Part shown: one piece after another, positions 46,465-57,200 of the stretch
Numbering within the stretch: the first letter of the stretch is position 1
How the letters are laid out: each line of letters opens with the position of its first letter
DNA from: Callorhinchus milii
Taxonomy: Eukaryota
Length of the DNA: 64,000 bases
Assembly (NCBI RefSeq): GCF_018977255.1
Contig: NW_024704742.1
Location: 40,426,001-40,490,000, forward strand
Reading direction: 5' to 3'
Notes under the pieces: model-generated
Databases searched by the model: none
Told to the model about the DNA's origin: nothing
The model's input: only the letters and a program-made list of their open reading frames with translations
Made by a program: the position numbers and the translations under genes

Positions 46465-47952
46465 TACGGAGTTTAGAAACTAGAGAACTGCAACTAGGAA
46501 AGGGCAGGTAAATGGGAGGAAATGATTGCTCTTAAAAGAGCCAACACAGACACAATGGTTGAAATATCCTTCTTCTGTGTCGTAAAATTGTATGGTTCTG
46601 CACTTAAAAGTATTAATTTCAGTCCAGGGGATAAACTATGAGGATATATCACAGAAGTTGGGAATATTCACATTGGAAAAGAGACAATTGAAAGATGATT
46701 TGATTTGTTTCCAAATCCTAAAGGATACAGTCAATGTTTTATCCAATATGGTCAAGAGATTCTCAAGAGATCATAGTTCAAACTCAGACCAGGGTGAGGC
46801 AATGATTTGATTAATTACGTTAGGCAGAAAGTAGTTATCGTGGAAGTGTTTGACCGGGGAGTTTGGAGATGTCTTGTCCCTCTGGAAGAGGGATGCAAAG
46901 TAAAGGGAACATAATCTTAGAACTGAACTGGTCAGAAGTGAATTCATAAAACATTTGTGAAAATGTGAAATTTACTACTTCCAAAGGGCTTAGAGGCTGG
47001 GAGATAAATAGAAAGTAAGCTCATTAAATGGTTTGGAAAATAGGTGGGGAAATGGGATTAAAAGATTTGCTATGATCTAATCAACTGGTAAAACAGGTTC
47101 GATAAGCTGAATAATCTCATCCTTCTCTTATATTTTTTTGACGTCTTATAGTTCTGGGATGTCTTTCCGATGTGAAGCACGCTATACAAGTGTAATTTGT
47201 TGTTGTTATTGTTGCCAGAAAAGAGAATTGGGGATATGTGAAACAAGGAATAATGGTACAGTATTTGAAAATGGTACCAGGCAATTGGATTGTAGTGGTG
47301 TTTTTCAGTTATATACATTCCTACGTTTCTATGAAAACAGGTTATGTTTTAATTCTCCACTCTTCCCCTCCGCCCTCAAAAAAAAGGAATACAGTAGAAT
47401 GTCCACACACCAAATATTTGCATGTCTATTTATCTGTATCAAATTCCGCAATGGAAATGGACACGGGCTAAGATACCAGCAAAAAATCCTGTTGGGTGCA
47501 TATGAGTGCATCTGAGCAAATGTAAAGATTGATCTGAAGGACATTCTTAGCAGTTTTGTACATGTGCAGAACAGGATTTTTTCTTGATAGTGTGAAAGCC
47601 TGACTCACAAGGTGTGTTTCACTGAACTTTTATACACTACGAAGTTGAGGGTCAGAAAAGGCAGAGTTGGAGAGGGAGAAGCACCTTTTGCTACTACAAG
47701 TAACTGTATAACTCCTGATGGAACTGCCTTTTAGGTAGCAATGGAGCCAATTTCTACTTTGTATGATGTTCAATTATTCTCACTGTTTGCTTATCGTCAA
47801 CTGGGCAAACCCCAATTAGTACGGATAATCAGCTCCTTACTGTACTCGACAGGTGTGACAACGCAAGAAATTGCCGCCGCAAAATAGCTGTTTCCTGATT
47901 TCCTGGGTTAACTTGTTTGCTGATTGCCCGATATAAACAAATAGCCTCATGT

Positions 47953-48280
47953 GGAGTCCTGTAGCTCAGTGGTTCGAGCACTCACTTTGCAAGCGAGAGA
48001 CCTGGGATCGATTCCAGGCAGAGGGCGAAACCTTGGGCAAGTTTCCTGACTCCACACGCCTGATAATAATCCCTCAAGAAAACAGAACAATAATAAATCG
48101 GTCACTTCAATCCACGACTGTTTGTGGGACACTGCTGTGCGCAATTGGCTGCCGCGTTTCGCCCACAAATATGCAGTCAATTCACTTTACAGCGTATTCT
48201 GTGAAGCGCTTTGAGACGTCGAGAAGACGTGAAAAGGCGCTATATCAAATGCAAGGATTATTATTACGTTATTATTATTT
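47953..48280 (+). mobile_element. Full-length tRNA-Ala(TGC)-derived SINE just upstream of the CPEB2 promoter
   Basis: A-box TAGCTCAGTGG, anticodon loop TTTGCAA, B-box-like GATCGATTCC, stem-loop and ATT tail. Confidence 0.9.
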
Positions 48281-48439
48281 TTTGGACCATTGACCAGGAA
48301 GCGGCTTGTGTGCCTTGCCCATTGCTCGCTCCTCCAGCTAGTCCCTGCTCCCTCACTTATCCCCTCCCGCTCCTATAGCCTCCCCCACTGGTACCCCCAC
48401 TCCACCCTCACCTCCACACTGTCAGCCCATCTCATAGCC

Positions 48440-48760
48440 CACCTTCACTCCTAACCCCGGCCCCGCCCACTCCACTCCTAGTCCCGCCCACTCATCTTCT
48501 AGCCCCGCCCCCCGAGACTCATCACCAAGCCCCGCCCACCCAACACCTCTCACAGGCCCCGCCCACTTCTCCTCGCCCTACCCCTCCCCTCACTCCTTTC
48601 CTAACCCCGCCCACTCTTGCGCCTAGCCCCGCCCAGTTCGCTCTAGCCCCGCCCCCGCCCCCCTTCGGCGAGCAGGCGGTTGAGAACGGTTTTTGAACCG
48701 TGTTCCCGGCGGCGCGCGGTGAGTGCGCGTCAATGCAAATGAGGTGGCGGTGCGCCTGGC
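48440..48760 (+). promoter_or_regulatory. CPEB2 promoter: GC-box (Sp/KLF) array plus octamer motif at the 5' edge of a CpG island
   Basis: About 8 CCCGCCC motifs between 48460 and 48665, and ATGCAAAT at 48733-48740. There is a sharp switch from AT-rich to GC/CpG-rich sequence and no evident TATA box. Confidence 0.75.
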
Positions 48761-49286
48761 GCGTGTACCTGAGGGGGAAGGGGTGGGGGTTGGGGGGCGC
48801 CCCCCCCCCCAGGGCAGAGAGGTGGGGGGGGGGGGGAAGGGAAGCCTGGAAACAGCGCAGTGTGGGAAGAGGCGAGGGTCGGGTCGGTCAGTGATACCGA
48901 GACGGGGGGGAAGAGGTGGCGATCGCTGGGGGGGGGGAATCAATCAATCAATCGGTGACTGGAAAGTGGGGGGGGAAGAGTGCGGGGAACCCCCCCACTC
49001 CCCTCCCAAGTAACTCCCATCTGATGAGGAGCAATAAAGCGCAAAACACACCCAATATATATTTTATTGTTATTGTTATATCCCAAAAAAAAAGCCTTAC
49101 GTTTCCCCCCTCCAACCGCCCCCTTTCATATTTTTTTTTAAAAAAAATAACCGTTTTTTGAAACCCAACTCCACCGGAGACGAAAAAAAACAATAGGGTC
49201 GGTGCGCTTTTTTTTCCTCTCTAATGTAATGTGGTCAGTAGGTGTGTGTGTGTGTGTATGTGGGTGGAGTGGGGGGTGACCTTAAA

Positions 49287-49349
49287 ATGGGGGATAACCG
49301 GTTCGGTTTATTACAGACGACGGCGGCCGGTGTGAGGAGGAGGAGGTAG
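49287..49349 (+). other. Short upstream ORF MGDNRFGLLQTTAAGVRRRR*, resembling the ancestral CPEB2/4 N-terminus
   Basis: AAAATGG is a strong Kozak context. The peptide resembles recalled CPEB4 MGDYGFGVLVQ and CPEB2 MRDFGFGVLQT. TAG at 49347-49349. Confidence 0.65.
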
Positions 49350-50106
49350 AGGTGGTAACGGAGTGTTACCCCCACCGGTCAGATATGAGAGCTCGGTGTT
49401 AGCGGCTTCTCCTCCCTCCCTCCCTCCTCCTCCTGCTGCTGCTGCTCGTCTTCTTCACACGGCGATGGCACCGCCTCTTCCCCCGCCTCTTTGTTTTTCC
49501 CAGTGCCCCCGGTTGGGTACGACACTGCTGTAACAGGATGAGCACTTTTTAATGCCGGACAGCGCGGCTCCGACAAGCACTCCCACCATCACCAGAGCAG
49601 CAGCAACGACAGCAGCAGCAGCAGCCGCCGCCCTCCTCCTCCTCCTCCTCAGCTCCGCCGCCGCCGCCGCCGCCAGCAGCAGCAGCAACAACAACAACAA
49701 CAAGAGCAACTCGGCACCGGCAGCCTCTCCGCACCGAGCTCTTCGCTCACTCAAATCGGGGCACAGGGACGGTAACAACAACAACAACAACAACAAGAAA
49801 AAGAAGGACGAGAACGGCTGAGACCCCCCACCCCAGAGCTGTTGGGAGAACGTGAGCAAACGCAACCACCACCTCCACCCTCCTCCTCCTCCCCCTCCTG
49901 CTCTCCTCCACCCTCCTCCTCACCAACAGCAGGACCTCCGCCTCCACCCCGCCACCGCCGGAGAGCAGCAGCACTGCTACCGGGAGGAGGAGGAGAAGAG
50001 GGGAGGAGGAGGAGGAGGAGAAAAGGACACGGAGACCTCCTCGCTCGATGCCAATGTCTGCGCCGCCGCTGCTGTGAACCCACCGAGCCGCAGCCCAGTG
50101 CAGAGG

Positions 50107-50769
50107 ATGATGGAGACTCCCGGTAACATGAGCGGCATCGGCGGAACCGGCTGCTCGGCGGCCAGTGGCGGCGGCATCGGGATGTTACCGGGGCTCGGAG
50201 CCGGCGGCTTTCAACAGCAACAGCAGCTCCACCATCACCAGGACACCGGCCCCGGAGGGGGAGGCAGCAGCGGAGGCAGCAGCAGCAGCAGCGGCTCCTC
50301 TCCATCCCCGGTCGCCGCTCTGACCGGCTACGGCACTGCCTGGTCACCGGCCACCGGCGCTCAGACCAGCACTTCACCGGGATCGGGAGCTGGAGGGAAC
50401 AACCCGGGACCTTCCGTCGGAACCGGTGCCATCCCGAGCCCCGCCGCCGCCGCAGCCGCAGCCGCCGCCGCCGCCGCCGAAGACAGCTTCTTCCACGGGC
50501 TCCAGTCCATTAACGGCACAGTCCTCTTCCAGAATTTCGCCGCCAATGCGGCCGGTGTGAGCCCGGGCTTCGGCGGCACCTTCTCTCCTCAGATCAGTTT
50601 ACCTCAGCAGCAGCAGCAGCAGCAGCAGCAGAACCGTCGATCTCCTGTCGGCCTCCAACACCATCACCACCACCACCCCCAGCACCACCATCCCCATCCC
50701 CAACACCAACACCAACACCAACACCAGGCCGCTTTCCCTCACCAGAGGAACACCTACAACCATCATCAG
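50107..50769 (+). CDS. CPEB2: CPEB2 first coding exon (low-complexity N-terminal region); start codon uncertain
   Basis: The frame is open from 49822 and its first ATG is at 50107 (MMETPG, cf. human CPEB2 MESPN). It encodes EDSFFHGLQSINGTVLFQNF...VSPGFGGTFSPQI and RRSP...QRNTYNHHQ, motifs of the CPEB2/3/4 N-terminus. It ends at a phase-0 donor CAG|GTACAG at 50769/50770. Confidence 0.85.
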
Positions 50770-51165
50770 GTACAGCCTTCAGTTTGGCCCGTGTCGCCGC
50801 CTCCTGCACACACCGCGCTCCACCGTCCGCTTTATTTTCCATACATTCCTCTTTTATTCCCCCCTCTCTCCCTCCCTCCCTCTCCCTCCCTCCCCTCCTC
50901 TCCTCTCCCTCCGCTTCCCCCTTCTCTCTTTTTTTTCTTGAAACCGAATTCCCTTTGTTCCGGCTCTTAGGTATGTCATAACCCCGAGTAAATGTTAGGT
51001 GTCCATTGGCAGTGGTTATTTAAGTGGAGGGGATGGATACCGCGCGGTGTGTGTGTGTGTGTTTGGGTGTGTGTTTGGGTGTGTTCCTGGTCGCTCGGGT
51101 CGATCCTGTCCTGTTGTGCGGACACGGATTTGGGAGAGTCGTGTCCGCTCTCTTTCCGTGGACTG

Positions 51166-51227
51166 GATAGACAGACGTTGCTGAAGATAGACAGACGTTG
51201 CTGAAGATAGACAGACGTTGCTGAAGA
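51166..51227 (+). repeat. Perfect 20-nt tandem repeat x3 (GATAGACAGACGTTGCTGAA)
   Basis: Directly visible in CPEB2 intron 1. Confidence 0.95.
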
Positions 51228-51973
51228 CCGAAAGGGTTGTTTTGTTTGTTTATTGATTTTATTTAATTTTATTTTATTTTATTTTATTTTATTTTTTTTG
51301 CCTCGGTAACAAGTCGGGCTTCCGAGTTGTCAGCAGTCACCGATGTTCGCTAAAATCCTTTGCTGAATCATTTGCAGTTCTGACAACGACCGTCGATGTT
51401 AACTATTTAATGTTCGGCATTTTGACCCTTTCCCGCAGCAAACGTACATTTTTTTTTGAGGTGGGGGTGTGGGGGGGGGGGGGGGGGGTAGGGGGTTAAA
51501 GTCGATGTTTATTCCGATTTGCGATTATTATTATTATTATTATTATTATTATTTTTGCGTTTCTTTTAATCATTCCCCCCGCGGAGCATTCATTTTACCT
51601 GCAGTGCAGTGTGTGTGCAGCCGAGTATTTTATTTTTTTTTCGGTTTCGAAATAAATGTCAATGAGATCCTGAAGATCGCGGGGATGTTAAAACAGTCGC
51701 TGATCACTTACAGGAGGGAATCTCAGTACCCGTCTCTCTCCTCCGCACCCACTCGTATATCCATCAGCCACTGCTCGGTTATGTCAGGAGGGATCGTCGA
51801 TTCTTGACCACAGTAGTGCACACACATAAACATGTATATGTAGCCCATAAAATGTCCCCCCAATAATTTTAAGTTACATCGAGGTACAGTGTGCAGTTCT
51901 GATATTGTAGCTGCACTTGGATATACCCGATGCAGAAGGGCAATGCTGATTGAAAATTGTGGAGGTTTGCACC

Positions 51974-52087
51974 AACAGATACAAGGCTGGGTCCAGTTCA
52001 TAGGGTGGGTCGGTGGTATATAATAATATTATTATTATAACAGATACAAGGCTGTGTTCAGTTCATAGGGTGGGTCGGTGGTATATA
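51974..52087 (+). repeat. ~49-nt direct duplication separated by an AT-rich spacer
   Basis: AACAGATACAAGGCTG...GGTCGGTGGTATATA at 51974 and at 52039. Confidence 0.9.
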
Positions 52088-52868
52088 CAGTATGTTGGTT
52101 TCTCAATGCTGAATGATGTCAACGATTATGTTGCTGCAAATCTAAGTTATTGCATTGCGCACTTAAAATAGGTCATGGCACCCTGTAGGTTTGTGCTACA
52201 GAAAAGCATACAGGATTTTGTGGAAGTCGAAACTGTTCAGCGTTGAAGGTTTTCAGCGCACAGAATGATTGCATAACACCACTGTGGCGAAAGCACTTAC
52301 TGGGGAATGCGAGCTGGGAAAGATTCTGTTGCTCAGTAATCCAGAAATTCTCTGGGAGGCTGCCAGGAAGTGCAGTGGGGATTTAAACTGAATGATAAGA
52401 AAGGTTTGGACCCATTTCTATTATATCCGAATATGCTCTCATTACTGTTGTGTGGGTCATCTGGGGTGGGGGGAATAGCATAGGATACGTAGCTTTAGTG
52501 GGACTCAATATAGTCTGTCAAACGTGTATTTTAATTCATTCAAATTTGATGGAAACATCATGCCATTTTAATCTTTAAAGTGGAGGTGCAGGTATTTAAC
52601 AAATGTATTCAGTAACATTAAAAAAACGTGTACTGGCCCTTACAATTTTGGCAATTTAGCTTGAATGTTTGCTTCATATTTGGCTGTTGAAAGTATGTAC
52701 GATTAAAGTTGCTTTGATTTACACCAATTACCCATTGTAGATTAGATGTGGTTTTCATGACACAATGGCCTATATAGAAATTATAAGGTACCTATGTGTT
52801 ATAATCTCTTTGTTCTGTATATCGTGAATGACATTTGCTGGTTGTACCTGGAATTGGAACAAGATATG

Positions 52869-53280
52869 TCAGCTTGACTCCGTTGGTAGCACTCTCGCCT
52901 CTGGGTCAGAAGATTGTGGGTTCACGCCACATGTCAGAGACTTAGCTTGCAGTATAGGCTGACATTTTAGTGAAGTGTTGGTGGAGTGCTGCATTGTCAG
53001 GGGTAGCGTTCTTTGAATTCGATGTTAAATCAAAGTCCTATTTGTTTGTTCAGGTGGATGTTGGACATGATTGAAAAAGAGAAGGGAGTTTCGTCTGTTG
53101 TCCGAACTAACAACCCTCCAAAATGAATTGGTCATTCACCTCTTGGCTGTTTGTGGGGCATTGCTGTGAGCAAATTAGCTGCTGTATTTGTCTGCAAATA
53201 CAGCTATTAGATTTAACAGTAATTACTGTAAAACATTTTGATATAAGCACTATAAATCAAATACAGGCATTATTCATTAA
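52869..53280 (+). mobile_element. Deu-domain-type SINE in CPEB2 intron 1
   Basis: Same head and core as 25122-25540; another copy at ~61262-61690. Confidence 0.65.
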
Positions 53281-53957
53281 TGTGAATTCAAAAACAACTA
53301 GAAAAATGACATATTTTTGGTGCCTGAAAATCTGGGGATATTATGCTATATTACTACTGTTAAAGAAAATCTGTCGCAGTGGGTTAGAAATCCCAGCAGC
53401 TGAAATCAGTCCAGACTGATGATCCAAATGTCTCCTCCGTTAGATCTAAGAGGCCTAACTGAAATTATTTCAAGCATTCTTAGATACCACAACACAAAAC
53501 TGTTCTTAATTTGTCACTGGTTGGTATTAAATTTTCAATCTAGCTTAGATAGGCCAAGGATGGTGGGAGAATTGGAGAATGTAATGCTAGGATATTGGAG
53601 AAGTGTTCTTGTAAGGTTGATTTTGAAGCAGCAGAAGTGGGGGATTTACTGTGAATCGAACTGAACGTGAACTGGGATTGCTTTATGCTGGCATCTCTTC
53701 TGTATACTAGCATGACATTCACAAAATAGTTATATAAAAAGGAATTGAACACACTACTTGGAGTGTTCAAACCATTAAGAAGGGGACAAAAGCTGAAATT
53801 TTATCATTGATCTTTCAATGATTTTTCTATTCCTATAATTTAAAATGTTGTTTAAATTCTTCTACAGGAATTTAATTGTTGCATGGAAAATATTGCAAAA
53901 TGTCTGACGTTTGTAATTTATGGTTTAATAAAGTAAGTTTGTTATTGTTGTTAGCAG

Positions 53958-54236
53958 CCCATAATGAAACAATCTCCATGGAACAGCCACCAGAGCAGTG
54001 GGTGGAGCGCAGGAGTCTCTTGGGGAGGCATGTCGACAAGAGATCACCGTAGAGCTGCTGGAGTAGGGATGCCGGCAACAATGAACCAAATTTCTCCACT
54101 GAAGAAACCTTTCTCCAGTAATGTCATAGCGCCACCCAAATTTCCTCGTTCAGCCCCAACACTGACACCAAAATCCTGGATCGAAGACAATGTTTTCAGG
54201 ACCGACAACAATAGCAACACTCTGTTACCTTTACAG
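53958..54236 (+). CDS. CPEB2: CPEB2 coding exon 2
   Basis: Encodes PIMKQSPWNSHQSSGW...MNQISPLKKPFSSNVIAPPKFPRSAPTLTPKSWIEDNVFRTDNNSNTLLPLQ, which closely matches recalled human CPEB2 (PLLKQSPWSNHQSSGW...KSWIEDNVFRTDNNSNTLLPLQ). Acceptor ttagcag| and donor CAG|GTAAGA, both phase 0; 279 nt. Confidence 0.93.
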
Positions 54237-57200
54237 GTAAGAACAGGACATGCTGTTTTTTTGGCATACACAGTAGTGAAGACATGAAATATAGTGTACT
54301 TTCCTTAAGAGCATGTTTCACCATCAGTAGTTTTTAAAAACACAAAAAAATCAAGTTACAAAGAATGATTATTAACTTTTATTCTTCCCCTCCCCAAGTT
54401 TAAACAGTGAAATGCTGATGACATCATTGGAGGAATATTCTTGGAGGAGTTACTGAGCTAGATAGTGTCTAGGAGCAGAAATAATATCAACAAGGATGAA
54501 CTAATTAAATCAGGGTGTTTTGTATACATAACAATTGTTAATTTATCTTCCTACCTGTTAGGTTTGGTAACTCCTGATTGAACTCCTACCTGCTCTCTTT
54601 TCCCCCAATAAAACCACCAGTATTTGAAAATGAAACAGATGGAATGGTAAGTACACCACTCAGTATGGTACTGAGCCACAGAGCCTCACATTTTATCTTG
54701 GCTGCGTTAGCTGAAGTCAGCCTCGTCATTTATTTAAGGCGGCACAACACTTGGCCTGTATTATTATTTCTATAACACTTGGCCTCAATGTTGTCCTGTT
54801 CAGAGAAGAGGCGTGCAAGTATAGATGTTCCTTTTTCTTCCCAGAATGTGCGTGTTGATTGAGCTTGGCTTAGATATGCCCATGATCAAATAGCCTAGTG
54901 ACATTTGTTGTCTTAAGTTTGATATGAAGAATAGCCAATTAGTTGATTTACTGGAAGGGTTGATGTTGCCTTTCAAACACCTGCCTATGTGTTACTACTA
55001 CCTTTGAGTGAACAGAGTAGATTATCTGGTGATGACAGGTAAATAAAAGAAAATTTGTTTTTACAACAGCTTCAAGGTGCTGATATTAAAACTTAGCCTA
55101 ATAAGGTATCCTTTGTGTGTTAATTCAAATGTAATGTACCCATACTCTTTGCGAAGGTACATGAAAACGCATTGAAAGATATCTTAATAACATAATGAGC
55201 GAATTGATTCCTTAACTGGGTTGGTGCAGCTGTTCTGTCAACGTGTGTGAGTCAATTTAGTTCAGTGATGGACATGATGGGGTGATATTTGCATTTAGTT
55301 ACTATATTACTCCACATGCCTTTTATTTACCTCAGAGGGAGTGGGAGCCCGGTTGTTGGTCGATTGGCAGATCGCTTTTCCAGGGGTAATAATCTCTTTT
55401 AAACAAAACAAATAAACAATAAATAAAAGTAATGATAATATGATCAGTCAATCCATGACTGTTTGTGGGAAACTGCTGTATGCAATTGGCTTCCGCATCC
55501 ACAACATATAGTCAATTCACTTTAAAGTATATCCTGTGAAGCTCTTTGATACTTCTAGAAGAGCAGGTCATAGGAATAGAAGTAGTCGTTTTATATAAAT
55601 ATATATATATTTAATCTATAATGTTTATTTAGCAGATCATTAGAGGTATAAATATTTCTAATCAGAATCTGCCAAATACATCAAATTAAGATGTAAGACT
55701 TTAAATATAGCAATGCAAATGCTAGTTTCATATCTGTTTTTGTGATGATACTGGACCTGAAACTGCTTCGAGTTACATTACAAAAGGTTTTTTTTGTCCA
55801 GAAGCCCTTGGAATAACATTGCACGTACTATCAAAATCTTTTCAAGCAACAGCTTGGGTAAGCTGTTATTTGTCAGGGTGGGGGAGGGAGGGAGGGGTGT
55901 GCTGGTAGACTATTTGACTGAGGGAGGGTTGGAGAAGATGGGTACAAGAGCCAGACCTGCTCCTTGTCCTTGTAGAATATTGATGTAAAATGGACAGTGA
56001 TTAGTAATGGGCACCCTGTTTTTTTCTCTTCCTTTCTCTAATCATCCTGCACCCAGAGATTAATTTAAGCGTTTTTACTGCTACCCTATCTGAGGTGAGT
56101 TAGCTCAGTACAGATTAGGGATAAGACCTTGGATCTGCCTTATAGCTGAGCTGTTTGCTGGAAAAAATTACTGAAGCTGCTGAAGCTAATTTCTATAAAT
56201 TACAGCATAAGAAACCAATCTGACAAACAATCTTTGGGAGATGATTCAAATAAACCCAATTAATTTCTATTATATTTTGGTTGGTTTTGGTCAGCCGGAT
56301 GTCTGACACATGCAGAAACCCATCACCATGCTTAGAAAATCCCATCTGAACATGGAAATTCCAGCGATGTTTATTAGAATGAAATGCGCCCTCGCCCTAG
56401 AGGGATGCATCCTGCTTACCTAATTCTGTGGTATTAGCTGCAGGTTGGCCAGAGCCAAGGGTTGGAACCCTAGCGTTTGTGTTGGGTCCCAAGCCTCAGA
56501 GTTTCCTCATCAGCTATCGGGCGGGCATCTGCCTTCAGCATGATGGGAGGATCTTTACAGCTTGTGACGTGGCAGCTACCTTGATGTTCTCGATGACCAA
56601 TGCTGCTTATTAGACACCAGCTGGTTAATCCAGATCCTCATGTGAGGAACCTTGGCAAATAGACATGCCCGCTGTGAAGCTGACTCTGCCTCCAGGATGC
56701 TCAATAACAGGTCAGTGTAGGCCGGTGCCCTCCTTCCTGCAGCCGCTTCCCGTGTTTGCCACAAATCCATTTCACTGCTTGATCCTGGACTTTGCAAATG
56801 GGCTGGAGGAACCCCAAGAGCTTGTTTATCACCTTGGTTCAAAAGATATATATGAAACTTGGTTTATGATGTGTTTGCAGTTCATGGTTTTAAATGCTTA
56901 TTTGACAGAACCCACCAGAAGGCAGAATTGTGAACATGACTCAGTTGATATTGTGCTACAGGAGTGATGTTCAATCGCTAGAACTGTTTCTGGCCACCCT
57001 TTGCCCTTTGTGATGGGGAAATGCATGCAAACTGCGAACGAATAAGGCAGTGCACATGCACTAAATTGAACAGCATCTGTGTTCTAACAGTTTTTAACCT
57101 AATTTATAATTGCAAAAGGTTTTCCTCATTTTGGAACTACAAAATATTGCAGTTTAAAATATGTTTATTTGGAATTGATACAGTGGGATGGATACATACA

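Follow-up and report, generated by a model that had tools for sequence, protein, structure and literature searches.

Introduction

Leaders that carry several upstream open reading frames (uORFs) of short length are familiar from ATF4 and GCN4; a uORF of the ATF4 type, overlapping the main start, is absent from the elephant shark (Callorhinchus milii) gene described here. The leader of Cpeb4, whose mRNA experiments showed to be controlled through uORFs during the unfolded protein response (review PMC11874964), likewise places several short upstream ORFs before a coding sequence of the CPEB2-4 family. It belongs to another paralogue, however, and the uORFs of elephant shark CPEB2 differ in being derived from former coding sequence.

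The size of CPEB2 disagrees by source, from about 1000 residues in mammalian databases to 716 in functional work and about 50 kDa in a pig study. A long CPEB2 transcript would encode a 110 kDa protein in silico, and a single band of about 50 kDa was observed (PMC6214008). In rat, the protein taken as full length has 716 residues, with N-terminal cysteines at positions 157, 350 and 444; it represses translation and binds eEF2 (PMC4627054). The N-terminal domain of CPEB proteins has been called highly variable (PMC9465852), and CPEB2 is described as His-rich in a study linking the condensation of CPEB4 to a His cluster (PMC11711090).

Vertebrate CPEB2 exon 1 contains three successive in-frame Met codons, in the motifs MGD, MQD and MESP. 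The long isoform, starting at MGD or MRD, comes from the same gene as the elephant shark locus and shares with it the motif order (MGD, LF, QD, MESP) and the exon 1/2 junction, but in the elephant shark four breaks in the MGD-MESP frame prevent translation through it. Here we report that about 270 CPEB2 codons have been turned into 5' leader in this species, as verified in sequencing reads. An earlier report of this loss was not found in the mostly open-access literature searched on CPEB2 starts and isoforms, CPEB evolution, chimaeras and ancestral-start uORFs; in the passages covered, PMC10284499 names no Callorhinchus, PMC11317171 no CPEB, and PMC4767366 gives no account of elephant shark CPEB2 loss.

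Results

Identity of the gene and layout of exon 1

We analyzed a window of 64,000 nucleotides of elephant shark DNA. CPEB2 exon 2 matches the C. milii protein P0001 at 100% and shark and ray CPEB2 at 90-96%, and one member of the protein cluster matching this exon carries the name CPEB2. Loose contig ends at 50769 in two sequencing runs (X3 and X9, see below) run on into exon 2, a splice that keeps the frame, and the region is assigned on these grounds to exon 1 of CPEB2. The exons for the two RRMs and the ZZ domain of the product (PF16367, PF00076 and PF16366, read on the public model P0121) lie outside the window and are connected with it via exon 2; no Pfam family covers exon 1 or exon 2. 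The features are as follows.

48462-48654, no strand: GC-box cluster, the likely CPEB2 promoter, with 8 of the window's 12 CCCGCCC/GGGCGGG words
49164-49286, plus strand: 5' leader that precedes the ancestral ATG and holds three upstream ATGs (49224, 49229, 49258), taken from the start of the X3 contig, which is strandless
49287-49349, plus strand: old CPEB2 start with the MGD motif, reduced to a uORF of 20 codons in strong context; translation, alignment, X1 and X3
49336-49446, plus strand: relic coding segment GGGGRGG..PVRYESSVLAAS in the +1 frame, flanked by two compensating shifts; alignment, and an X3 contig across it with no net indel
49447-49531, plus strand: relic coding segment SSPASLFFPVPP..TAV, first frame again; identical in X1, X3 and X9 from 49460
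49530-49536, plus strand: third lesion, an extra A at 49532, with the Met of MQD missing too; in 3/3 organism A runs, absent in organism B
49534-49821, plus strand: relic QDEHFLMPD segment in the main frame; translation, with 49594-49816 masked in the run comparison
49819-49821, plus strand: in-frame TGA severing all upstream frames from the main ORF; present in X1 and X3
49822-50106, plus strand: open homologous stretch without an in-frame ATG; alignment and ATG table
50107-50769, plus strand: what remains coding in exon 1, 221 codons from MMETPG.. to a His-rich end; X3 and X9 join it to exon 2
53955-54236, plus strand: intact CPEB2 exon 2; identity to P0001, and run ends at 50769 continue with its letters

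Several features of the surroundings were recorded along the way. The exon 2 acceptor is a tandem NAGNAG (TAG-CAG, 53952-53957), whose first AG is used in X3 and X9; model P0123 is one Gln shorter there, and sawshark isoforms vary by one residue at this place. At the end of exon 1 the donor scores a weak 6 of 9, and the frame runs on past it through 66 open codons of intron 1 (50770-50970) to a stop at 50968. Intron 1 also holds a perfect tandem repeat of a 20-base unit in 3.1 copies (51166-51227). A tRNA-derived SINE (47959-48290), with like copies elsewhere in the window, lies directly 5' of the putative promoter. An Rfam scan of 47500-54500 returned a tRNA-like SINE head only, and a sigma-70 promoter scan was set aside as not applicable to vertebrate DNA.

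A relic N-terminal frame broken by several lesions

A sequence-only reading of this DNA had described CPEB2/4-like motifs in the expected order and in shifting frames, and three-frame translation placed each of them at the coordinates claimed. ATG 49287 (aaaATGg) reads MGDNRFGLLQTTAAGVRRRR and meets its stop at TAG 49347-49349; GNGVLPPPVRY follows in the +1 frame, SLFFPVP..AV is again in the first frame, and QDEHFL begins at 49534 in the +1 frame, directly after GTAACAG. The likening of PVRY to PVRF draws on a paralogue, CPEB4; in shark CPEB2 the counterpart of the GNGVLPPPVRY stretch is GGGGVGVYRC.

In a frameshift-aware alignment with CPEB2 of the sawshark Pristiophorus, the frame changes near 49339, near 49446 and near 49540, and a stop falls at 49819. 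The position of the second shift is uncertain (49446 with the sawshark, 49410 with other queries), and one query hints at an additional compensated shift pair inside the repeats. For three shark or coelacanth CPEB2 N-terminus queries, the frameshift-aware scores against 49280-49570 were 71, 61 and 15, compared with 22, 33 and 2 without frameshifts and with shuffle maxima of 14, 25 and 13; for each query, 0/150 dinucleotide shuffles reached the score. The match of the relic to CPEB2 N-termini is thus far above chance.

The open frame from MGD to the RRMs, which defines the long isoform, is absent, being interrupted by TAG 49347, the shift at 49532 and TGA 49819; the part lost amounts to about 270 disordered codons. 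On unspliced RNA the main frame cannot extend above 49822, and its first ATGs are 50107 and 50110. Within 49822-50106 there are near-cognate codons at 49852, 50029, 50074 and 50098 and weak out-of-frame ATGs at 50048 and 50054. The affected stretch had been given as 49287-49851, and the lesions do lie there, but the decisive TGA 49819 had been overlooked and the dead stretch reaches 50106. The public model P0123 crosses this TGA in another frame, with residues identical to this DNA.

Two further observations concern the relic. Across 49594-49816 the +1 frame is poly-Leu and may conceal another compensated shift pair. The conserved SLFFP codons (49485-49503) form a T-rich acceptor-like site; joined to it, a donor-like site at 49330 would keep the first frame, yet that frame ends at TGA 49539.

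The lesions are present in DNA and in spliced RNA

We compared the region 48650-50850 with 4 of the 24 sequencing runs listed, namely X1, X3 and X9, from three independent studies of organism A, and X15 from organism B. X1 spans promoter and intron and so behaves as DNA. X3 and X9 both end at the donor 50769 and resume in exon 2, and so hold spliced RNA, although the run comparison classes their kind as a guess; no run is on record as RNA, so that this nature of X3 and X9 is taken from their spliced ends.

Every lesion that was covered was reproduced: TAG 49347 in 2/2 covering runs (X1, X3), the extra A at 49532 in 3/3 (X1, X3, X9) and TGA 49819 in 2/2 (X1 and X3 pieces from 49817). The X3 contig over 49164-49593 departs from the window by one substitution (49358 A>G) and one extra G 5' of ATG 49287; the X1 pieces 49272-49408 and 49460-49593 are gap-free, and the X9 piece 49460-49593 is identical. 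The second shift (49409-49459) is covered solely via the length of the X3 contig. In the two covering runs the N of 'GNG' reads S.

The sequence-only reading had named consensus errors in GC-rich low-complexity DNA, with the true frame open, as its alternative. The window does disagree with the reads nearby, by G insertions at 48903, 48927 and 49205, which together with a CCT at 49878 also demonstrate that the comparison detects indels, and 49675-49795 lies outside run coverage, within a stretch (49594-49816) that was repeat-masked in the comparison. Against such errors stand the reproduction of the covered lesions in up to three studies and TGA 49819, which by itself shuts the frame whatever 49675-49795 holds; the gap is immaterial to the conclusion because this TGA closes the sole frame joining the main ORF. 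The frame from 49287 is not continuous, and the consensus-error explanation is largely refuted and scarcely credible now. The lesions are real, being found in DNA and spliced-RNA runs, and are not a product of mis-assembly, so that the earlier claim of several lesions, with loss of the N-terminal extension as coding sequence, holds at the genomic level and in spliced RNA.

The runs differ from the window at some other places. Triplet-repeat lengths within 49594-49816 vary between runs by threes: the X3 contig carries 6 more letters up to 49650, in frame, and then one CCG less. Further differences lie at 48934, 49048, 49358, 49851 and 50806; those at 49205, 49358 and 49851 are common to X1 and X3. 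The G insertions within G runs may be consensus errors of the window.

The surviving start coincides with a conserved Met

ATG 50107 has an adequate and ATG 50110 a strong context. The product from 50107/50110 would comprise about 665 residues, of which exon 1 contributes 221 codons. A third Met motif, M[ED][SATP][PT], stands at this place in 72/86 distinct N-termini; it is missing from 14, those of amphibians, of one sturgeon model and of mammalian models, several of these with part of exon 1 skipped. Counted from MESP, a cat CPEB2 model has 718 residues and Cys at 162, 360 and 446, other starts giving unlike sets, and the spacings of 94 and 210 recur in a rat model. From this cysteine numbering we infer that the 716-residue rat form begins at the Met that survives in the elephant shark; the mammalian upstream frame differs in having stayed open. 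The loss is less singular than had been proposed, since the Met at which the surviving frame starts is conserved and corresponds to that of the rat working form.

The locus lacks the marks of a pseudogene: 50107-50769 and exon 2 are open, the contigs are spliced, and 3 of the 4 changes listed there against organism B are silent. The retained part of exon 1 has 21 His and 9 SP/TP sites. We do not claim a condensation defect from the lost N-terminus, as the CPEB4 His cluster lies further in and its counterpart survives here; the idea that the first CPEB4 residues drive condensation did not appear in the passages covered of PMC11711090 or its bioRxiv version. The cluster has four public C. milii models, of 402-570 residues, and 0/4 contain the product of about 665 residues.

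The N-terminal extension in other vertebrates

Starts in other species were taken from annotation, not from DNA. MGD is the annotated start in 8/18 elasmobranch species (rays, sawshark) and in bony fish, amphibians and mammals, whereas the remaining 10/18 (nine galeomorphs and Heptranchias) are annotated from MQD/MPD. Among turtles, with 15 of 124 cluster members listed, 15/16 species are annotated from MQD/MPD and 0 from MGD. These galeomorph, Heptranchias and turtle models resemble the elephant shark in being without the first MGD segment; unlike it, they retain the stretch between MQD and MESP (about 120-200 residues), and their loss is known from annotation alone. In a rat model, V replaces the Met of MQD. 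Model P0133 (Chiloscyllium punctatum) has 47 residues above MQD that are unlike the MGD segment, a weak hint of true loss in galeomorphs.

The extension looks widely kept but labile, and the elephant shark shows the greatest loss. Rays, sawshark, bony fish, amphibians and mammals all have an open MGD frame, which therefore appears to be under selection in most vertebrates, and loss of the MGD segment may be non-neutral, which counts against a passive loss.

Comparison with organism B

Organism B is 91-96% identical over the aligned pieces, with no listed change in QDEHFL, and is probably another holocephalan. It is without the extra A at 49532, the sole lesion shown to differ between organisms A and B, and this lesion is therefore lineage-specific; the Met of MQD is missing in organism B too. 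Its contig aligns at 49283-49335, with differences at 2/53 sites, but not across the TAG or the TGA. The earlier claim of a lineage-specific loss thus stands for the 49532 lesion and falls short in that other lineages are also annotated without the first segment.

Changes listed against organism B alter the amino acid in 10/12 cases above 50107 and 1/4 below (Fisher p 0.063), where random change would give a silent share of 13-26%. This pattern fits loss of constraint above 50107, but the sample is small, the contrast falls short of significance, and the region is disordered and variable among sharks in any case. Overall divergence did not differ (12/134 above 50107, 9/155 below, p 0.37), in a count that omits the pieces 49881-50133, which straddles the start, and 49283-49335. 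A +27 spacing in organism B, considered as a sign of an open frame, was dropped, as the organism A anchors likewise lie in one frame.

Protein searches returned no relative's protein across the lesions. The relic ORF 49534-49818 matched 0/4351 candidates; the exon 1 ORF matched 1 of 8000 scored, a whale-shark model; and a cluster-representative search gave three matches, one shark CPEB2 and two CPEB3-like pieces. Such negatives carry little weight with low-complexity queries.

The leader and the use of its ATGs

The GC-box cluster points to a promoter lying upstream of the old ATG. If transcription starts by 49164, as the X3 contig would suggest, the leader is at least 943 bases long and contains 10 upstream ATGs, two of them in strong context (49287 and 49465). 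As had been proposed, the ancestral start is left as a strong-context uORF: ATG 49287 is retained with its context (aaaATGg) and opens 20 codons ending at the TAG seen in X1 and X3. Four ATGs follow 36-203 bases past this uORF, then 493 ATG-free bases; from ATG 49552, in weak context, a uORF of 89 codons runs to TGA 49819-49821. The last uORF ends at 50077, 30 bases before 50107, and none overlaps the main start, so that the ATF4-type layout is absent. The ATG count of the leader is in mild excess (6 against 2.9 +/- 1.4 in shuffles). At positions where relatives keep Y/F and G or A, the uORF peptide carries N and R.

This layout raises the possibility that the dead coding sequence was co-opted as a GCN4/CPEB4-like leader, in which the 20-codon uORF would be translated, reinitiation would normally occur at the following ATGs, and these would be bypassed to 50107 upon eIF2-alpha phosphorylation. 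The strong ATG 49287, the four-ATG cluster after its stop with the long ATG-free stretch beyond, and RNA contigs over the leader all agree with such a switch. At 20 codons, though, the uORF is on the long side for efficient reinitiation, and it has three ATGs ahead of it. The main start is overlapped by no uORF, and decay would also give this layout. As to precedent, uORFs activate Cpeb4 mRNA, but the review that describes this sets CPEB4 apart from other CPEBs in uORF control (PMC11874964). The regulatory CPEB4-like device put forward earlier therefore has no support so far, the more so as its peptide has drifted, no contig links the leader to the main ORF and the contigs are strandless. CPEB4-like stress control of CPEB2 is possible by analogy; the co-opted switch as a whole we consider unlikely.

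A shift of promoter would account for the relic differently, with most CPEB2 mRNA beginning below the lesions (at about 49800-50050 or in intron 1) and the relic reduced to 5' flank or to a minor, possibly antisense, RNA. In the runs compared, no contig joins leader and main ORF across the AAC repeat at 49796; X3 depth is 9.4 upstream and 65.4 downstream, although contig depth is a poor measure of level and was not taken as one of expression; the public models P0001, P0121 and P0122 start in or just before exon 2; and the contigs carry no strand, which leaves room for antisense. The break at 49796, however, is a graph feature, because the DNA-like run X1 is interrupted at that very letter too, in an AAC microsatellite. 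Moreover, two RNA-like runs cover the relic, X9 doing so while lacking 49817-50504, and the GC-box cluster lies upstream of 49287. RNA contigs that cover ATG 49287, from 49164 in X3, speak against a transcription start downstream of the relic, which the sequence-only reading had named as refuting its proposal. We regard a promoter shift as improbable.

The long protein could, lastly, still be made through an intron inside exon 1 or by recoding past the lesions. Mammalian models P0086 and P0036 do join an early to a later part of exon 1, acceptor-like sites exist at 49503, 49652 and 49929, and contigs omit rare forms. Such joints were seen in 0/4 runs (rows at repeats having been dropped), and the single acceptor below the TGA is out of frame with each of the listed donors (4/4 pairs). 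Recoding would need four events, three shifts and one readthrough, and TGA 49819 is followed by GAC, not by the leaky context UGA-CUAG. Rescue by either route is very unlikely.

Discussion

The explanation that we favor, at a probability of roughly 55%, is that a dispensable long isoform was lost, that the protein is made from 50107/50110, and that the old ATG persists as a passive leftover uORF. The part above the third Met would have decayed in the elephant-shark lineage through three frameshifts, loss of the second Met and one nonsense codon, the first lesion freeing the remaining extension to decay. The resulting protein of about 665 residues would correspond to the rat form of 716 and keep the His-rich segment, both RRMs and the ZZ domain. 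Its start may be reached on transcripts with a shorter leader or, on long-leader transcripts, by inefficient leaky scanning or reinitiation past the 10 upstream ATGs; the old ATG uORF would dampen the output of long transcripts without being a selected switch.

Passive loss is supported because the lesions are reproduced, the third Met is conserved, the extension is labile, the uORF peptide has drifted, changes above 50107 are replacement-rich and the four donor-acceptor pairs are out of frame. It is weakened by the retention of the ATG and its context, by the few differences from organism B at 49283-49335 and by the ATG excess. A wider reading would have CPEB2 N-terminal coding sequence converted stepwise and repeatedly across vertebrates into a uORF leader, in galeomorph sharks, the sevengill shark and turtles and furthest in the elephant shark, with the ancestral AUG as a selected switch conferring CPEB4-like stress-inducible translation by exaptation; this we hold to be distinctly unlikely.

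If the uORF is passive, as in the favored reading, the finding amounts to a one-lineage truncation of a disordered region. It nevertheless corrects the C. milii CPEB2 annotation, as the product of about 665 residues is absent from its four public cluster models. It also speaks to the unsettled question of which CPEB2 start is really used: the elephant shark is a natural deletion of all that lies above the 716-type start, and the extension would thus not be essential in a jawed vertebrate. A comparison of ray and elephant shark could test the extension's role in condensation or dosage. More generally, coding sequence turned into 5' leader with the old AUG in place offers a clean substrate for studying the origin of uORFs.
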